From a virus, in the IMG/VR virus record IMGVR_UViG_3300034062_004313, positions 64,001 to 128,000 of that record: a DNA stretch of 64,000 nucleotides; one strand, given 5' to 3'. Every line of letters starts with the position of its first letter. Position 1 is the stretch's first letter. Shown here one piece after another: positions 4,111-47,018 of the stretch. The position numbers and the translations under genes were made by a program. The notes below the pieces were generated by a model. The model was not told where the DNA came from. It did not search any database and saw only the letters and a list, made by a program, of their open reading frames with translations.

Positions 4111-4454
4111 AATTGTTTTGTGTTTTCTATTTCAAATACGGATTCAAGAAACCATTCTTTATTAAGACTATCGGGAAGTGTTATTATATATCCCTTTTCA
4201 ACATCTTCTGATTCTTCTGGTTCTTTATAGAACATTGTGAATTCAATTTCACATGGGTCATCACCATTATCAAGAAGATTTAAGAAGTCTACTATACGTT
4301 CTTCAGGAATAAATACTTTCTTTCTTAATGATAAGAGTAATTCATCTACAGTTGGACCCACTTTATCATATTTCTTAGATTTTTCCCAATCTTTTTTAAT
4401 CTTTTTTGGATTAGTTTCATCTAAGTATTTCTCTAATTCTTCAAACATGTTCAT
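4107..4454 (-). CDS. hypothetical protein
   Basis: 115-aa acidic ORF in tightly packed array. Confidence 0.65.
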   Translation of the reverse strand: MNMFEELEKYLDETNPKKIKKDWEKSKKYDKVGPTVDELLLSLRKKVFIPEERIVDFLNLLDNGDDPCEIEFTMFYKEPEESEDVEKGYIITLPDSLNKEWFLESVFEIENTKQL

Positions 4455-41543: not shown

Positions 41544-41575
41544 TTTGATTATATAAAATTATTACACTATATTAC
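41544..41575 (+). promoter_or_regulatory. probable promoter of tRNA operon 1
   Basis: TTTG-N20-TATATTAC (degenerate -7 element). Confidence 0.5.
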
Positions 41576-41584
41576 AATATAATT

Positions 41585-41665
41585 ATGAAATACGTAGTAA
41601 CACATACAACATGTCCACAGTGGTTTACACCGACAATATCGGGAGGGGCTTTGTATGTATACTAA
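41585..41665 (+). CDS. attenuator leader peptide 1 (MKYVVTHTTCPQWFTPTISGGALYVY)
   Basis: codons 6-17 are only Thr/His/Cys/Pro/Gln/Trp/Phe, the tRNAs of operon 1; 3' end pairs with the terminator arm. Confidence 0.88.
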   Translation: MKYVVTHTTCPQWFTPTISGGALYVY

Positions 41666-41687
41666 GAAATAGCTGTGTAGTAACATC

Positions 41688-41715
41688 AACCCTCTGAGAA
41701 ATCGGAGGGTTTTTT
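41688..41715 (+). terminator. attenuator terminator 1
   Basis: AACCCTCTGA-GAAA-TCGGAGGGTT plus T tract just before tRNA-Pro; 41678-97 can instead pair with 41639-64. Confidence 0.9.
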
Positions 41716-41719
41716 ATTT

Positions 41720-41813
41720 CTAGTTGTGGACGAGAGGTTTATGTCATTAGTCTTGGAAACTAATATCTGCACACAGATGGTGTGGGTCAAGGGTTCGACT
41801 CCCTTCAACTAGA
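41720..41813 (+). tRNA. tRNA-Pro(UGG) with long variable arm
   Basis: acceptor CTAGTTG/CAACTAG, A73; anticodon arm TTAGT-CTTGGAA-ACTAA; T loop TTCGACT. Confidence 0.8.
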
Positions 41814-41823
41814 CTTTTAATTT

Positions 41824-41896
41824 GCCTTACGAAGCTTTTATGGATGAAGTGTACTCTTGTAAAGTACGGAACTGGACTCGATTTCCAGCTAAGGCT
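41824..41896 (+). tRNA. tRNA-Thr(UGU)
   Basis: GCCTTA/TAAGGC acceptor; GTACT-CTTGTAA-AGTAC. Confidence 0.8.
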
Positions 41897-41902
41897 CAAA
41901 TT

Positions 41903-41975
41903 GGAGAAGAAGCTAACTTGGTAGAAGCGTTAGACTGAAAATCTAAAGGAGTTGGTCCGAAACCAACCTTCTCCG
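41903..41975 (+). tRNA. tRNA-Phe(GAA)
   Basis: GGAGAAG/CTTCTCC; TTAGA-CTGAAAA-TCTAA. Confidence 0.85.
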
Positions 41976-41977
41976 CT

Positions 41978-42052
41978 AAATACTTAATGAAACAATAAAG
42001 GAACAAAGGGGTCCGGGTAGAAATACGTTAGCGCCCATTGATTTAAGTATTT
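41978..42052 (+). ncRNA. unknown ~75-nt structured RNA within tRNA operon 1
   Basis: closing stem AAATACTTAA/TTAAGTATTT; GC-rich core with GTA-GAAA-TAC tetraloop. Confidence 0.45.
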
Positions 42053-42057
42053 TTTAT

Positions 42058-42129
42058 TCCTATGTGGTGTAATGTAACATCCACGCCTTTGAAGCGTTGA
42101 GATTGGTGGTTCAAGTCCATCTATAGGAA
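42058..42129 (+). tRNA. tRNA-Gln(UUG)
   Basis: TCCTATG/TATAGGA; ACGC-CTTTGAA-GCGT; T arm GGTGG-TTCAAGT-CCATC. Confidence 0.82.
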
Positions 42130-42131
42130 CT

Positions 42132-42206
42132 GTCTAAGTGTTCTGACTGGATTCAGATGAATGACTGTGAATTATTCAAAAAGGGTTCGAATCCCACTTA
42201 GACCCA
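42132..42206 (+). tRNA. tRNA-His(GUG)
   Basis: GTCTAAG/CTTAGAC; AATGA-CTGTGAA-TTATT; C discriminator; T-stem register imperfect. Confidence 0.78.
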
Positions 42207-42210
42207 ATAT

Positions 42211-42283
42211 ATAGGTACTCATGGCTGGCGTGATAAACAATCTCCAAAATTGTGATTTGTTGAATCGTTCTCAACTACCTATG
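42211..42283 (+). tRNA. tRNA-Trp(CCA), divergent
   Basis: ATAGGTA/TACCTAT, G73; ACAAT-CTCCAAA-ATTGT; atypical T loop ATCGTTC. Confidence 0.7.
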
Positions 42284-42339
42284 CTTTATAGGTCTATATA
42301 CCTATATTTATAGATTATAGGTTTTAAAGGCTATAATTT

Positions 42340-42415
42340 GTCCAGATACCTAATATTGATTTTGGGATAGGTCTGCAACACCTATTAAATATCGGTTTGA
42401 TTCCGATTCTGGACT
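42340..42415 (+). tRNA. tRNA-Cys(GCA)
   Basis: GTCCAGA/TCTGGAC, U73; TAGGT-CTGCAAC-ACCTA. Confidence 0.82.
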
Positions 42416-42429
42416 CTATTAAAAATAAA

Positions 42430-42461
42430 TTTTTTTATTTGAAAAAGATTTCGTATATTTG
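42430..42461 (+). promoter_or_regulatory. promoter of tRNA operon 2
   Basis: -7 element TATATTTG (42454-61) in the same TTTCGTATATTTGC context as the operon 3 promoter. Confidence 0.7.
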
Positions 42462-42486
42462 CTGTATAAATAATAAACATTCAACA

Positions 42487-42567
42487 ATGCAACTTATAAA
42501 TATGATAGTGGATAACGGTATTGGAGCAAACGAGAAGTTTGGCTTCAGGTATTCTATTGTCGTATAA
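42487..42567 (+). CDS. attenuator leader peptide 2 (MQLINMIVDNGIGANEKFGFRYSIVV)
   Basis: codons 4-17 are only Ile/Asn/Met/Val/Asp/Gly/Ala/Glu/Lys, the tRNAs of operon 2. Confidence 0.88.
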   Translation: MQLINMIVDNGIGANEKFGFRYSIVV

Positions 42568-42588
42568 TTACTTACTAACCCGATAAAG

Positions 42589-42619
42589 AATCCTGAGGCC
42601 CATCGCTTCGGGATTTTTT
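42589..42619 (+). terminator. attenuator terminator 2
   Basis: AATCCTGAGGC-CCATC-GCTTCGGGATT plus T tract; 42581-600 can instead pair with 42541-62. Confidence 0.9.
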
Positions 42620-42623
42620 GTTT

Positions 42624-42698
42624 AATCTCGTAGCAAAATGTGGCTTTGCTTCAGCCTTTTAAGCTGACTAAAAATGGGTTCGACTCCCATCGGGATTA
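42624..42698 (+). tRNA. tRNA-Lys(UUU)
   Basis: AATCTCG/CGGGATT; TCAGC-CTTTTAA-GCTGA. Confidence 0.88.
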
Positions 42699-42704
42699 CT
42701 AAAT

Positions 42705-42777
42705 GGCTCTTTAGCTCAGTGGTAGAGCTTCGTTTTTACATGACGAGAAAGCACTTGTCCGATTCAAGTAAGAGCTA
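42705..42777 (+). tRNA. tRNA-Val(UAC)
   Basis: GGCTCTT/AAGAGCT; canonical D arm; TCGTT-TTTACAT-GACGA. Confidence 0.82.
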
Positions 42778-42778
42778 C

Positions 42779-43108
42779 ATGAAATATATATTAGGAATAC
42801 TGTTCTTATTAATTATAGGAACAGCAACAAAAACAGGAATTGCAAGTTATTATCATAACAAGTTTCAAGGAAGGAAAACTGCTAGTGGTGAATTATATGA
42901 TAAACATAAATTAACAGCAGCTTCTAATCAATATAAACTTGGTGATAGTGTAAGAGTAACAAATACTAAGAATGGTAAAAGTGTAAATGTTACAGTAAAT
43001 GACCGTATGGCTAATAATGGAAGACTAATTGATTTAAGTAGAAGTGCTGCTGATAGTCTTGGTTTTATTAAGGATGGTTTAGTTGTAGTTAAAGTTAGTA
43101 TATTATAA
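42779..43108 (+). CDS. rlpA: RlpA-like double-psi beta-barrel protein (lytic transglycosylase family)
   Basis: hydrophobic N-terminus; GIASYY...GRKTASGE.YD...LTAA...VRVTN..NGKSV.V.VNDR...R.IDLS..AA..LG; start moved to ATG 42779 because the longer ORF overlaps tRNAs. Confidence 0.85.
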   Translation: MKYILGILFLLIIGTATKTGIASYYHNKFQGRKTASGELYDKHKLTAASNQYKLGDSVRVTNTKNGKSVNVTVNDRMANNGRLIDLSRSAADSLGFIKDGLVVVKVSIL

Positions 43109-43113
43109 ATATC

Positions 43114-43187
43114 TGTTTTGTAGCTCAGTGGCCTAGAGCGTGAAGCTGTTAACTTCAGGGTCGTGGGTTCGAATCCCATCAGGACAG
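43114..43187 (+). tRNA. tRNA-Asn(GUU)
   Basis: TGTTTTG/CAGGACA, G73; TGAAG-CTGTTAA-CTTCA. Confidence 0.92.
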
Positions 43188-43192
43188 CATAT

Positions 43193-43277
43193 TGTGGGAT
43201 GGTGTAATTGGTAACACGCAAGGCTCATAACCTTGAGACAGAAAATGCTAGCAAGGGTTCGAATCCCTTTCCCGCAA
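43193..43277 (+). tRNA. tRNA-Met(CAU) with extended variable region
   Basis: TGTGGGA/TCCCGCA; CAAGG-CTCATAA-CCTTG. Confidence 0.82.
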
Positions 43278-43282
43278 CACAA

Positions 43283-43355
43283 GCAGTATAGGCAGATTGG
43301 CTTATGCACCTCACTTCCAATGAGGACATGGTGGGTTCGATTCCTACATGCTGCA
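43283..43355 (+). tRNA. tRNA-Gly(UCC)
   Basis: GCAGTAT/ATGCTGC; CCTCA-CTTCCAA-TGAGG. Confidence 0.88.
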
Positions 43356-43402
43356 CAAAAATTATATTATGAAAAATTCTTTAAAAGAAGGTGAAGAGAT
43401 AT

Positions 43403-43475
43403 ACTCTCATCTTCTAGTTGGTCAGGATAACACACTTTCAATGTGTTGACACGGGTTCAAGCCCCGTTGGGAGTG
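43403..43475 (+). tRNA. tRNA-Glu(UUC)
   Basis: ACTCTCA/TGGGAGT; ACACA-CTTTCAA-TGTGT. Confidence 0.88.
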
Positions 43476-43485
43476 CTTTAAAAAT

Positions 43486-43559
43486 GGTAGATGGGTCTGC
43501 TGGATGAAGATGTCGGTCTGTCGAACCGAAGATGATGGGTTTGAATCCCATATCTACCG
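43486..43559 (+). tRNA. tRNA-Asp(GUC)
   Basis: GGTAGAT/ATCTACC, G73; TCGGT-CTGTCGA-ACCGA. Confidence 0.85.
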
Positions 43560-43564
43560 CATTA

Positions 43565-43639
43565 GGACTTGTAGCCAAGTTGGTAAAGGCCCTTGACTCA
43601 TAATCAAGAGATGCAATGGTTCGAGACCATTCAAGTCCA
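43565..43639 (+). tRNA. tRNA with CAU anticodon, probably Ile2 (lysidine); Met not excluded
   Basis: GGACTTG/CAAGTCC Ile-like acceptor; CTTGA-CTCATAA-TCAAG; leader 2 has two ATA codons. Confidence 0.75.
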
Positions 43640-43644
43640 CATAT

Positions 43645-43716
43645 AGGAATATAGTAGAAGGGTTATCACAATTGACTGATACTCAATTAATATAGGTTCG
43701 AATCCTATTGTTCCTA
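43645..43716 (+). tRNA. tRNA-Ile(GAU)
   Basis: AGGAATA/TGTTCCT; ATTGA-CTGATAC-TCAAT. Confidence 0.85.
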
Positions 43717-43721
43717 CATTT

Positions 43722-43794
43722 GGGGATAAAGCTCTAGCGGATGAGCATCTGCCTTGCACGTAGAAGGTTACGATTTCGAGTGTCGTTATCTCCA
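43722..43794 (+). tRNA. tRNA-Ala(UGC)
   Basis: GGGGATA/TATCTCC with G3:U70; TCTGC-CTTGCAC-GTAGA. Confidence 0.88.
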
Positions 43795-43818
43795 CATAGG
43801 GGTTCGGAAAATAATTAG

Positions 43819-43854
43819 CTACATCTCTTTATTAATAAGGGTTGTAGCTTTTTT
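43819..43854 (+). terminator. terminator ending tRNA operon 2
   Basis: AGCTACA.CTCTT...AAGGG.TGTAGCT plus T tract. Confidence 0.75.
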
Positions 43855-43930
43855 ATTGTCTCAAATATTGTAATAATTTGCGACATAATTTATTTTTTGT
43901 CAGGTTATAACCTTTCTTTATCTTTGTTTT

Positions 43931-44098
43931 ATGAATTGGCATATACTACCTGTAAATGATATAGAATATCATGAAGAATCTACCACTTGTAAGTGTGAAC
44001 CACAAGTAGAATTTATAGAAGGAGATATGCTAATTATACAAAACTCTTTTGATGGTAGAGAAGGAGTTGAATGGGTAAATGAAATTTTAAATAAATAA
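43931..44098 (+). CDS. 55-aa hypothetical protein (MNWHILPVNDIEYHEESTTCKCEPQ...SFDGRE...)
   Basis: translated by hand; H..H..CxC pattern; TATCTTTG element 4 nt upstream. Confidence 0.65.
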   Translation: MNWHILPVNDIEYHEESTTCKCEPQVEFIEGDMLIIQNSFDGREGVEWVNEILNK

Positions 44099-44130
44099 TT
44101 TGGAAAATTCAAAATAATTTCGTATATTTG
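44099..44130 (+). promoter_or_regulatory. promoter of tRNA operon 3
   Basis: TTTG-N20-TATATTTG, full Bacteroidota consensus. Confidence 0.8.
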
Positions 44131-44134
44131 CTTT

Positions 44135-44203
44135 ATGAAAACATTATCACTATATAGTTCCTCAAGTTATCTCTTATTAAGAGACAGGGATTGTATTGTG
44201 TAA
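44135..44203 (+). CDS. attenuator leader peptide 3 (MKTLSLYSSSSYLLLRDRDCIV)
   Basis: codons 4-15 are only Leu/Ser/Tyr, the tRNAs of operon 3. Confidence 0.88.
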   Translation: MKTLSLYSSSSYLLLRDRDCIV

Positions 44204-44231
44204 ATAGCTATAAGCTTTTAGCTCCCCTAAC

Positions 44232-44263
44232 AATCCCTTGTCTTTCCAGATGAGGGATTTTTT
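44232..44263 (+). terminator. attenuator terminator 3
   Basis: AATCCCTTGTCT-TTCC-AGATGAGGGATT plus T tract; 44230-43 can instead pair with 44182-94. Confidence 0.9.
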
Positions 44264-44266
44264 ATT

Positions 44267-44339
44267 GGCTCTATGACGTAATCGGCAACCGTCTTGGCTT
44301 TAGACCCCAAGTTTTCCAGTTCGAATCTGGATAGAGCTA
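44267..44339 (+). tRNA. tRNA-Leu(UAG) lacking a long variable arm
   Basis: GGCTCTA/TAGAGCT, A73; TTGG(C)-TTTAGAC-(C)CCAA. Confidence 0.75.
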
Positions 44340-44394
44340 CAAATTAGCAGCCCTCTATGGATAATTCTATTGACGAATAGAATATGGGCAAAAT

Positions 44395-44477
44395 ATTCCT
44401 GTGGTGAAATGGTGAGACACGGCAGACTTAAAATCTGCTACGGAGAAACGTTGCTGGTTCGAATCCAGTCAGGAATA
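44395..44477 (+). tRNA. tRNA-Leu(UAA)
   Basis: ATTCCTG/CAGGAAT; GCAGA-CTTAAAA-TCTGC; variable arm present. Confidence 0.9.
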
Positions 44478-44480
44478 CTT

Positions 44481-44565
44481 AGCAGAATGTCAGAGTGGTT
44501 TATTGTGATAGTCTTGAAAACTATTGGGTGTAAAAGCTCCTTGGGTTCGAATCCCAATTTTGCTG
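44481..44565 (+). tRNA. tRNA-Ser(UGA)
   Basis: AGCAGAA/TTTTGCT, G73; ATAGT-CTTGAAA-ACTAT; variable arm. Confidence 0.88.
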
Positions 44566-44569
44566 CAAT

Positions 44570-44658
44570 AGAAGATTGTGTGAGTGGCTTAAACAACCAG
44601 TTTGCTAAACTGGCGAGGGATTAAAACACCTCCATTGGTTCAAATCCAATATCTTCTG
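44570..44658 (+). tRNA. tRNA-Ser(GCU)
   Basis: AGAAGAT/ATCTTCT, G73; CCAGT-TTGCTAA-ACTGG; variable arm. Confidence 0.9.
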
Positions 44659-44663
44659 CATAT

Positions 44664-44756
44664 TGTGTTGTAACGGCAGTAGACTGTAAATCTACTCTGC
44701 ATAACAAATTGTCGTACTGGTCTCGCAGTAAGAAGGTTCGAATCCTTTCAACACAA
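44664..44756 (+). tRNA. tRNA-Tyr(GUA) without a D arm, with enlarged variable region
   Basis: TGTGTTG/CAACACA, A73; GTAGA-CTGTAAA-TCTAC; canonical T arm; only 8 nt between acceptor and anticodon stems. Confidence 0.7.
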
Positions 44757-44782
44757 CATTAACTTATTATTAACTATAGACA

Positions 44783-44814
44783 TTTGACTATATAAAGTAA
44801 ATAGTCTATTTTTG
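44783..44814 (+). promoter_or_regulatory. Bacteroidota sigma promoter for a small RNA
   Basis: TTTG-N20-TATTTTTG with a GACTAT/ATAGTC inverted repeat. Confidence 0.7.
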
Positions 44815-44818
44815 TATT

Positions 44819-44956
44819 GTACAAATTCCCAACCGTCATAGGAGATTTGTATTTAATTAACAATAACTATATATTCGATTGATGTAACTTTGTTCTTAGG
44901 AACGCAACTTGACGGTTGGGACCCCTTGTACTTAATTGTATGAGGGGATTTTTTTT
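44819..44956 (+). ncRNA. candidate ~140-nt small RNA with its own promoter and terminator
   Basis: 12-bp stem TCCCAACCGTCA (44827-38) / TGACGGTTGGGA (44910-21); terminator CCCCTTGTAC...GTATGAGGGG-A-T8. Confidence 0.6.
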
Positions 44957-45054
44957 GCAGACATCCGAGGTTTTTCTTTCCTTCTTTTACGTCCTCCACA
45001 AAAATAAAAGAGTGTCATTAAGATAGTATAGTATATTACACTTGGTATATTATA

Positions 45055-45290
45055 TGATAGGATGTAGAAAAATCAGCAATGTCTAAGGTGACAACTGGAC
45101 CTGAACGAAATTATCAGCAAAAACTACATTCCTCCGTGAAAAATAAAATCATCTTATAGCTGATAATTATTTGTAGATGATTGGCAGGACATGGGAATCT
45201 TAGGTTGACAATATGTTTATAGGAGTATGTGTTAACTATAAATACATTATCCCAACAGGGGAAGACCTTGTTCAGGATAGACCCCCTTAT
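45055..45290 (+). ncRNA. candidate multi-stem structured RNA
   Basis: no credible ORF; stems 45109-18/45159-68, 45100-06/45270-76, 45147-54/45175-82, 45060-67/45124-32. Confidence 0.4.
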
Positions 45291-45316
45291 GTAAATTAAC
45301 AATAAAATGTAAAACT

Positions 45317-45622
45317 ATGAAAAACCACAAAATGACATCATATCAATTCATGATGTTAATGCAAGAATTACCAAATCCAATGTATTATGCTAGAAATGGA
45401 GCTAATGTAGGATTTAGAGTAAAAGTAGGATATTTAAAGAAGTCCATTGATAATACTCCTACAATATTAATAAATCCTAATTCTCAACCTATGAAGATGG
45501 CAGAAGTTGAACAGGTAGAATTTGAATTAGTTCCGAACAATACTATTTGGTATTGGCAACCTGTAGAACCAATTACTATAATAACATTAGATAAGAAAGA
45601 GTACATTAAAAATTGGGAATAA
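45317..45622 (+). CDS. hypothetical protein
   Basis: 101-aa ORF. Confidence 0.65.
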   Translation: MKNHKMTSYQFMMLMQELPNPMYYARNGANVGFRVKVGYLKKSIDNTPTILINPNSQPMKMAEVEQVEFELVPNNTIWYWQPVEPITIITLDKKEYIKNWE

Positions 45623-45930
45623 TGAATATAATAAAATGGTATAAAAGAGTATTTAGAATTCTTACTATAGAAGAATGTAAAGAATTAGGATTAGTACATT
45701 CTCATAATATATATGGTGATAGTATTAATCATTTAAATTGTAGAAGTATTTGGAAAGATGAAAAGGATAGAACATATAGGTGTGAAAGTTTAATACCTAC
45801 TATAGGAGTACTAGATTTATGGATTTTAAAAATGAAAAATCAAGATAAAGTACAACCAATAACTCAAGAAGAATATAATAAAATAAGAGATGAAGAATTT
45901 GAAAGGCTCAAGACTTTATATTCGCCTTAA
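45613..45930 (+). CDS. hypothetical protein
   Basis: NIYGD.INHLNCRSIW motif. Confidence 0.65.
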   Translation: MGIMNIIKWYKRVFRILTIEECKELGLVHSHNIYGDSINHLNCRSIWKDEKDRTYRCESLIPTIGVLDLWILKMKNQDKVQPITQEEYNKIRDEEFERLKTLYSP

Positions 45931-45967
45931 CAAATAATAGTGTAATTTTGGCTTCTAAATAAAAATC

Positions 45968-46288
45968 ATGAAAGTATTAACAGAAGGACATTATTATGAA
46001 CTAGAACATTTTGAAAAAGATGAATCGGGTAGTTCAGAAAGTTTACAATTTATCGAAAAGGTTCCAAAAGGTGAAGGGAAAGTACAAGATTTAGTAACAG
46101 TAAATAATGGAACTACAAATGAAGAAGTTCTTAAAGTTCTAATAAATAGAATGAACTATTTACAAGCAAAATTTCCATGTAGAGAAAATGCTATTGTAAT
46201 TACAAAACTTGAAGAAAGTCTAATGTGGTTAGAAAAAAGAACTGTTGATAGAATAGCTAGAAATGTAGAAGGTAAACAATTAAAATAA
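45968..46288 (+). CDS. Tad1-like anti-defence sponge protein
   Basis: NGTTNEEVL.VLI.R...LQ..FPCRENA..ITKLEE.LMWL..R..DR..RNVEG resembles the recalled Tad1 C-terminal signature. Confidence 0.7.
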   Translation: MKVLTEGHYYELEHFEKDESGSSESLQFIEKVPKGEGKVQDLVTVNNGTTNEEVLKVLINRMNYLQAKFPCRENAIVITKLEESLMWLEKRTVDRIARNVEGKQLK

Positions 46289-46296
46289 AATAAACT

Positions 46297-46512
46297 ATGA
46301 AAAAACAATTATTTACGTATGCTGTATTATTCCATCAGCATGAAGAGAAAGAGGGAAAATTGGAATACAAAGAAACACTTATTCTTGTAGAACCAAAAGT
46401 GATTTTAGCAAAGAATAGTAATGAAGTAGCATTCAAAGCTACAAGAGACGTACCAGAACAATATGCAGGATTTTCAGAAAATGTAGAAATTATAGTACGC
46501 CCTTTTAAATAG
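46297..46512 (+). CDS. small hypothetical protein ending IIVRPFK
   Basis: 71-aa ORF; possible frameshift extension. Confidence 0.7.
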   Translation: MKKQLFTYAVLFHQHEEKEGKLEYKETLILVEPKVILAKNSNEVAFKATRDVPEQYAGFSENVEIIVRPFK

Positions 46513-46711
46513 CTCCCCCTTAATGTGGGATAGTGGGAGCAAAGGAGTATGGGAACAATTAGTAGACCCACCTAAATATAAAAGTACTTTCCAAAATTAT
46601 ATGGGTACAACTACAAATTTAGTAGGACAAGCAATAAACACTTTGACAACAGGAACATCAATATCATATAACATGGCAGATGCAATGTCATTCACAAATT
46701 AAAATCAAATT

Positions 46712-46876
46712 ATGAAAACACTAACAAATCTATTTACAAGCAACCCATCTTACATGAAATGGGGTAATGAAAGAATTGCAAAAAGAACAGGGCTGAAACC
46801 AAAAACAGTAGAGAAATTCAAAAAGAATCCCTTGTATAAGATAATGAAAACCCAATATCTTAACGAGATTAATTAG
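46712..46876 (+). CDS. 54-aa basic HTH-like protein (MKTLTNLFTSNPSYMKWGNERIAKRTG...)
   Basis: translated by hand; resembles the N-terminus of 47019..48335 (NP..L..G..K..LA.RLG). Confidence 0.55.
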   Translation: MKTLTNLFTSNPSYMKWGNERIAKRTGLKPKTVEKFKKNPLYKIMKTQYLNEIN

Positions 46877-46926
46877 GAAATGTCGCAAAAAAGGCGTATA
46901 TTGTTATGATATGCGCTTTTTTATTT

Positions 46927-46998
46927 GGCTCCTTAGTTAAATGGATATAACCGCAGAATTCTAATCTGCATTTGGGAGTTCGATTCTCTCAGGGGCTA
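46927..46998 (+). tRNA. tRNA-Arg(UCU)
   Basis: GGCTCCT/AGGGGCT; GCAGA-ATTCTAA-TCTGC. Confidence 0.88.
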
Positions 46999-47018
46999 CG
47001 AAATCTTAAAAATAAATT

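Follow-up and report, generated by a model that had tools for sequence, protein, structure and literature searches.

Canonical class II tRNA-Tyr(GUA) genes, which are described by the Rfam tRNA model RF00005 and of which the 83-nt gene of the crAss-like phage cr126_1 is an example, combine a 7-bp acceptor stem and the discriminator A73 with a CUGUAAA anticodon loop, a T arm, a stem that begins right after position 44, and the motif U-A-G-U-G-G, and they take up positions in phage tRNA arrays. Departures from this plan are of several kinds. In D-armless mitochondrial tRNAs, such as the metazoan mt-tRNA-Ser(AGY) and those of nematodes (PMC7609411, PMC4013460), a short unpaired loop joins the acceptor stem to the anticodon stem in place of the D hairpin, there is no long variable arm, and the factors that serve these tRNAs are adapted mitochondrial ones. 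Sequence mining has also brought to light natural nonstandard tRNAs, including the allo-tRNAs and other noncanonical cloverleaves with 8/4 or 9/3 acceptor/T branches (PMC5389517), in which helix lengths are altered within a nested cloverleaf. Phage-encoded tRNA-Tyr genes have further been linked to defense: Septu and the PtuAB of retron-Eco7 cut the variable arm of Escherichia coli tRNA-Tyr, the tRNA-Tyr of phage T5 resists cutting through a distinct variable loop, and in phage T6 an amplified tRNA-Tyr gene provides escape (PMC13096335, PMC11555353).

Here, we describe a D-hairpin-less tRNA-Tyr gene, which we call TyrX, at positions 44664-44756 (+) of the window, that is, of the whole 64,000-nt stretch of DNA analyzed, corresponding to bases 64001-128000 of an IMG/VR virus record that is complete at 155,874 bp and has ~30% GC. 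TyrX shares with canonical tRNA-Tyr all of the features listed above, and differs from it in that the D hairpin is missing: the loop of the variable arm appears to contain the 5' half of the D arm, which would form a pseudoknot by pairing across the anticodon arm. The lack of a D hairpin is also what TyrX has in common with the mitochondrial type, but in TyrX a 5-bp equivalent of the D stem seems to be rebuilt, the GG of the D loop and a normal T loop are kept, and the RNA must work with ordinary bacterial machinery; the strand at the D-arm site is not an unpaired replacement but is paired in 100% of the family, with compensatory changes. Like the allo-tRNAs, TyrX is a natural nonstandard tRNA candidate obtained from sequence mining, but what is altered is strand topology rather than helix length, and a pseudoknot is needed. 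The variable arm of TyrX, like those of the T5 and T6 tRNA-Tyr, is phage encoded and unlike that of the host; the coliphage genes, however, are ordinary cloverleaves for which a resistance or dosage effect was demonstrated experimentally (PMC13096335, PMC11555353), whereas resistance of TyrX is something we infer. No description of a tRNA of this kind was found in a review of noncanonical tRNAs or in the full-text literature searched, the coverage of which excludes most subscription journals.

An initial sequence-only reading of the window had proposed that the acceptor, anticodon, and T arms of this gene are intact and that only TAACGGCA stands where the D arm should be. Both proposals agree with the sequence (Table 1). 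The window gene has a 7-bp acceptor stem with a discriminator, a 5-bp anticodon stem with the GUA anticodon in a 7-nt loop carrying U33 and a purine at position 37, and a canonical T arm whose loop follows GTTCRANYC, and the 8 nt of TAACGGCA (44671-78) are all that occupies the D-arm site. From position 9 to position 26, the span of the D-arm hairpin, there are 5 nt, compared with 15 in the Rfam model, and the partner strand is found 33 nt downstream. The same reading described a variable region of ~36 nt with a CTGC/GCAG stem around TGTCGT, followed by ACTGG; the region indeed measures 36 nt (44696-44731), with the stem at 44697-700 and 44725-28 and TGTCGT at 44710-15. Class II tRNA-Tyr identity is reflected in the invariant GUA, in A73 in at least 90% of sequences, and in a covarying 4-bp helix (helix b) after position 44. 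Upstream, a gap of 4 nt separates TyrX from tRNA-Ser(GCU), and many other spacers in the array are 2-5 nt.

Table 1. Positions in the window of the elements of TyrX, of the control region upstream of its sub-operon, of the three leaders, and of tRNA-like genes missed by ARAGORN
Feature	Position	Strand	Remarks
Acceptor stem 5' strand, TGTGTTG	44664-44670	+	7/7 pairs with CAACACA 44749-55; all seven covary in the family
U8-A9 equivalents, TA	44671-44672	+	Invariant in 47 homologs; unconstrained by the variable-region search pattern
Helix a 5' strand, ACGGC	44673-44677	+	Pairs with 44711-15; 100% of family cells paired
Position-26-like purine, A	44678	+	Covaries with 44696; pairing with 44710 unreliable
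Anticodon arm, GTAGA / CTGTAAA / TCTAC	44679-44695	+	Anticodon GUA at 44686-88
Position-44-like nucleotide, T	44696	+	Covariation with 44678
Helix b 5' strand, CTGC (variable-arm stem)	44697-44700	+	Pairs with 44725-28; 99.5% of cells paired
A-rich linker, ATAACAAATT	44701-44710	+	Family consensus UUAACAAAU conserved
Helix a 3' strand, GTCGT	44711-44715	+	Compensatory changes with 44673-77
D-loop-like segment, ACTGGTCTC	44716-44724	+	A14-like A, then G18/G19-like GG at 44719-20; A-N-U-G-G conserved
Helix b 3' strand, GCAG	44725-44728	+	Covariation; RNAalifold
Connector U-A-R (TAA) before the T stem	44729-44731	+	UAG or UAA in the family; partly forced by the variable-region pattern
T arm, GAAGG / TTCGAAT / CCTTT	44732-44748	+	Canonical T loop; stem covaries
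Acceptor 3' strand, CAACACA, and discriminator A (44756)	44749-44756	+	No encoded CCA
Upstream control region of the Leu-Leu-Ser-Ser-TyrX sub-operon	44099-44266	+	Putative function, sequence-based
Bacteroidota-type promoter-like TTTG..TATATTTG	44099-130	+	Motif
Leader ORF, 22 codons	44135-44203	+	Codons 4-15 are LSLYSSSSYLLL at 44144-79
Alternative, mutually exclusive hairpins (predicted)	44182-94 / 44230-43	+	Sequence
Terminator (predicted), T run	near 44262	+	Sequence
Leaders of the three sub-operons	about 41586-41666, 42487-42567, 44135-44203		Central runs THTTCPQWFTPT, INMIVDNGIGANEK, LSLYSSSSYLLL
Thr(UGU) tRNA-like, ARAGORN-missed	41824-41896		Clean cloverleaf minimum-energy fold, T loop CUCGAUU
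His(GUG) tRNA-like, ARAGORN-missed	42132-42204		27.5 Rfam bits
Trp(CCA)-like RNA, ARAGORN-missed	42213-42281		Weak acceptor stem, T loop AUCGUUC

Standard gene finders pass over the locus. TyrX was called neither by ARAGORN in the window nor by Rfam scans of 64 kb and 5.7 kb. In a local 401-nt search, the RF00005 model aligned to exactly 44664-44756 with 34.6 bits (cut-off 29), deleting the D arm and inserting 33 nt in the variable region; the gene is absent from the wider scans because their filters drop the match. For the copy in phage crAss001 the same model gives 28.2 bits, against the cut-off of 29. No Rfam intron or ribozyme family matches the TyrX locus.

Conventional homology searches offered little. 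Following a 438-aa neighboring protein led to 21 loci at 32-37% identity, of which the 16 scanned contained one tRNA gene and no array; an exact 23-mer from the locus had zero matches among viral contigs, a 24-kb megablast against GenBank phages gave no match, and the matches of an 801-nt blastn were limited to the adjoining Leu and Ser tRNAs. Because no close relatives of the phage were present in the collections searched, the architecture itself was used as the query. A pattern of the form TAACNNCA...GACTGTAAATC was dropped, as it retrieved mostly ordinary tRNA-Tyr genes with a D arm ending in GGTAACCCCA. A Tyr anticodon loop and a T loop separated by an over-long gap identified 19 viral contigs, 16 of which carry the whole layout. 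A pattern restricted to the variable region, and hence blind to the anticodon, matched 84 viral contigs, with a full gene in 81 and 47 distinct sequences, and every member found in this way has the anticodon GUA. A complementary pattern placed no constraint on the variable region and fixed just the two loops, anticodon and T, together with the 5' strand. Its matches were for the most part the loci already identified, with the addition of 10 new variants in which the fold is kept. In total, TyrX comprises 56 distinct sequences from 90 loci, on contigs of up to 640 kb and with a flanking GC content of 22-55%; its variable region spans 33-38 nt, versus about 13 in canonical tRNA-Tyr. Conservation has to be read with the search patterns in mind: AAAU, G49, GUA, UGG, GUAR, and GTTC are columns forced by the variable-region pattern, and TAAC..C are those forced by the complementary one. 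The AAAU of the linker, partly forced in this sense, is mostly retained in the members that came from the complementary pattern, where it was free.

The sequence-only reading also proposed that ACGGCA, the strand at the D-arm site, pairs with TGTCGT in the variable region. In shuffles of the variable region of the window sequence alone, a complement to ACGGCA of at least 6 bp arises in 2% of cases, and at that chance rate the window by itself is only suggestive of pairing; it is covariation among homologs that makes the pairing solid. In alignment A1, the 47 distinct sequences to which our pair counts refer, the five core pairs of this helix (helix a, ACNNC/GNNGU) are paired in 100% of cells. 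Compensatory changes occur at both variable positions: columns 12/51 hold GC in 29 sequences and AU in 18, and columns 13/50 hold six pair types (GU, UG, CG, GC, AU, UA) with no unpaired cell. At these two positions, the additional members contribute the further combinations AA/UU and GC/GC. The CTGC/GCAG stem covaries too, with UA 31 and CG 16 at one pair and GC 35, CG 10, and AU 1 at another, and RNAalifold independently predicts it. Helices a and b together are paired in 99.8% of cells as compared with 85.3% in shuffles (0/500 reach the observed value) and contain 62 doubly changed cells versus 19.7 (0/500), although these shuffle counts overstate independence, given that TyrX sequences are related. 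Pairing drops to 22-65% when the partners of the two helices are slid. Taken over the structure as a whole, the share of paired cells is 96.8%, as opposed to 69.3% for shuffles. A mutual-information scan that uses no structure places pairs of helices a and b among its top pairs, beside those of the standard stems. None of the homologs had a normal D arm without conserved pairing. At the level of the family alignment, we consider the long-range pairing between the D-site strand and the variable arm to be confirmed and, because helices a and b cross, the fold to be a pseudoknot.

Not every detail of the proposed pairing survives. Helix a had been drawn with 6 bp, and the five pairs just described stand, but the sixth, A44678-T44710, is unpaired in 19/47 sequences and was rejected. 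In its place, the columns of 44678 and 44696 covary in the mutual-information scan (A.C 32, G.U 12, A-U 9) in the manner of a 26-44 pair, here A44678-T44696. The suggestion that a D-loop-like GG follows the partner strand gains from the 10 additional members, which keep it even though their pattern did not demand GG. Covariation of the Levitt type, between the N after A14 and the purine of the connector, was not seen by inspection, nor is it among the top mutual-information pairs.

These constraints point to a particular fold. The 5' strand of helix a joins the position-26 purine and the anticodon stem without a linker and so must replace the 3' strand of the D stem. The ACGGC strand would then be the topological 3' strand of that stem (positions 21-25), stacked on the anticodon stem; its GNNGU partner, within the ~24-nt loop of the 4-bp variable-arm stem, would be the 5' strand (positions 10-13); and the A-N-U-G-G after the partner would supply the equivalents of A14 and of G18-G19, that is, the 5' half of the D loop. 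In effect, segment 10-20, the 5' half of the D arm, would have been moved behind the anticodon arm, pairing back as a pseudoknot. Conservation suggests that the GG contacts the T loop, itself unchanged, and that the L shape is kept. Functionally, TyrX may be excised from a tightly packed polycistronic tRNA precursor. The phage genome encodes no TyrRS and no CCA-adding enzyme and the gene has no CCA, so that host enzymes would have to serve it: CCA would be added by the host, and host TyrRS would recognize A73, G34-U35, and a variable stem at its normal site, yielding a charged tRNA predicted to read UAU and UAC.

The phage genomes themselves provide further context for TyrX. In all 81 of the 81 fetched loci it lies within a tRNA array on the same strand, and in none of them (0/81) is it called by ARAGORN. 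No other Tyr(GUA) gene is present in 71 of the 81; the remaining ten arrays hold both TyrX and a canonical tRNA-Tyr, often adjoining, and this retention of the canonical gene means that TyrX may have a role beyond redundant decoding. Canonical phage tRNA-Tyr genes adjoining TyrX have the same U-A-G-U-G-G motif in their D loops. For the window phage, ARAGORN predicts 19 tRNAs, not one of them a tRNA-Tyr; all are encoded on the (+) strand, within 41720-46999. In crAss001, a cultured Bacteroides phage (MH675552.1), TyrX lies at 4141-4235 between tRNA-Lys and tRNA-Phe, unannotated within a 170-nt gap (L214 1501-1595), and the genome is without a canonical Tyr gene; the related Kolpuevirus cr126_1 has its ordinary tRNA-Tyr in the same slot (L215 715-797). 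The TyrX site is unannotated in 31 of 31 matching GenBank phage records. A scan of 185,579 prokaryote genomes (one per species) yielded just three true copies. Each is on a MAG contig, in a dense tRNA array, and two of these contigs are identical but binned to different phyla. TyrX is thus essentially absent from cellular genomes and restricted to phages. A conserved, covarying, Tyr-specific RNA confined to phages fills the Tyr slot of their tRNA arrays.

Two further observations concern the composition of TyrX arrays. In L205 (14081-14450; IMGVR_UViG_3300021387_000463, 412,753 bp) the order is Tyr - TyrX - Tyr, and the first canonical Tyr gene and TyrX have identical acceptor stems and T arms that differ by one base, a pattern suggestive of local duplication or of gene conversion between them. 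Suppressor-type tRNAs (CUA, UCA, or UUA) are present in the arrays of L037, L039, L032, L158, L185, L100, L159, and L204, which suggests stop-codon recoding in those phages.

In the window, the surroundings of TyrX also speak to its identity. Bacteroidota-type promoter motifs number 11 in the window versus 3.95 expected. Three tRNA sub-operons can be delineated at 41544-44266, each with a promoter motif, a leader ORF of 22-26 codons, predicted alternative hairpins, and a predicted terminator, and they look like cases of leader-peptide attenuation of tRNA genes. Each central run of codons in a leader specifies exactly the amino acids of the tRNAs behind it, once the uncalled Thr, His, and Trp tRNA-like genes are counted. 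Tyr codons in the third leader had been cited in the sequence-only reading as an argument that TyrX is functional, and they are there: all 12 codons of the central run are for Leu, Ser, or Tyr, and the operon that follows is Leu, Leu, Ser, Ser, TyrX. In mononucleotide shuffles, a Leu/Ser/Tyr run of 12 codons was the longest run in 1 of 200. Nineteen amino acids are represented in the three leader runs taken together, and a separate tRNA-Arg at 46927 brings the set to 20; it is complete only if TyrX counts as Tyr. A codon-matched leader is suggestive, though not proof, that the phage treats TyrX as its tyrosine tRNA. Among all the loci, a clear codon-matched leader upstream of a TyrX cluster was found in the window only; a 14-aa peptide precedes the crAss001-type cluster, but with nearly every amino acid represented in those arrays it does not lend itself to interpretation.

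Other features of the array region were recorded. The 95-nt tRNA-Pro(UGG) and one 86-nt tRNA-Met(CAU) (41720-41814 and 43193-43278) have variable regions unusually long for class I. A Bacteroidota-type promoter motif at 44783-44814 directly follows TyrX. After it, with no tRNA in between, comes a strong hairpin that resembles a terminator and has a T run (~44918-44956). Downstream of the array, a 106-aa ORF at 45968-46288 (+) gave a sub-threshold match to the Pfam Acb2/Tad1 hairpin domain (E 4e-5, 24.2 bits vs 27) and is a possible anti-CBASS/Thoeris sponge.

We estimate at roughly 0.7 the probability that 44664-44756 is a working member of a phage-specific, non-cloverleaf class of tRNA-Tyr, a reading that draws on the sequence and its homologs and has to be weighed against several others. 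One could suppose that there is no pseudoknot and that a local hairpin forms instead, ACUG/CAGU (44716-19 with 44726-29), which is present in both the minimum-energy and the centroid fold of the window sequence. On the family alignment this hairpin was rejected: 84% of its cells are paired, the same as in shuffles (500/500 reach this value), with no compensatory change and with 11 to 17 sequences unpaired at each of two pairs, and it would exclude helix b, which is paired nearly throughout and covaries, so that we regard it as highly improbable. Still less credence can be given to a decaying tRNA-Tyr pseudogene with a deleted D arm and chance complementarity in its variable region. The failure of ARAGORN and of the whole-window Rfam scans would fit such a gene, as would the 2% rate of complements of at least 6 bp in shuffles of the single sequence, but a decaying gene would not be expected to recur as 56 distinct homologs, on contigs of 22-55% GC and up to 640 kb, with all helices intact, changes that are compensatory, and a fixed place in tRNA arrays.

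It is also conceivable that the product of the gene is a precursor and that the mature molecule is an ordinary or a two-piece tRNA, formed by removal of the ~33-nt insert or by cleavage of the loop. The insert is long, and other lineages do have intervening sequences and tRNA genes that are permuted or split. Removing the insert, though, would not restore a D arm, as just 8 nt precede the anticodon stem, and no Rfam intron or ribozyme matches; moreover, both the conserved GG and the strand that covaries as the helix a partner are within the insert, which is therefore under selection as a component of the folded RNA. We consider this explanation very unlikely. More weight, although we still think it unlikely, goes to the idea that TyrX is a conserved tRNA-like decoy or sponge for a host factor, for example, a defense nuclease directed at tRNA-Tyr, and delivers no tyrosine to the ribosome. 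Ten arrays do retain a canonical tRNA-Tyr beside TyrX, the D/variable core that is touched by the ribosome and by modification enzymes is radically altered, and a decoy role for phage tRNA-Tyr against Septu has been raised (PMC13096335). Against a decoy, TyrX is the sole Tyr gene in most arrays, in the window genome, and in crAss001, in sets that are otherwise near complete; it conserves A73, a 7-nt anticodon loop with G34-U35-A36-A37, the T loop, and the GG, none of which would be required of a decoy for a variable-arm nuclease; and Tyr codons stand in the leader before the operon in the window. To return to TyrX as a working tRNA, the remodeled D/variable core could sustain phage translation against nucleases that cut the variable arm of tRNA-Tyr, and a family confined to Tyr and remodeled exactly in the region that is cut fits, speculatively, with selection by defense nucleases. 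The full scenario, in which TyrX is matured, charged with Tyr by host TyrRS, and used by the ribosome as encoded, has spread through nuclease escape, and has its supply here set by the Tyr codons of the leader, is possible, and we put it forward tentatively.

The cloverleaf has been treated as universal for bacterial and phage tRNAs, and the TyrX class shows that the L shape can probably be reached by another strand topology; if it is matured, charged, and used by the ribosome as encoded, TyrX would be the first non-cloverleaf, pseudoknotted elongator tRNA to work with the standard bacterial translation machinery. Because TyrX is invisible to ARAGORN and unannotated in GenBank, the tRNA repertoires of phages are under-counted, and without it both crAss001 and the window phage would seem to have no tRNA-Tyr. 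The window adds to the family a 156-kb, ~30% GC phage lineage with Bacteroidota-type promoters, together with the leader-peptide argument. Since crAss001 is cultured, it is a natural test case for the structure and for its recognition by the synthetase, EF-Tu, and the ribosome. Finally, a family limited to Tyr, set beside the tRNA-Tyr target of Septu and the retron, offers a counter-defense hypothesis for gut and environmental phages.
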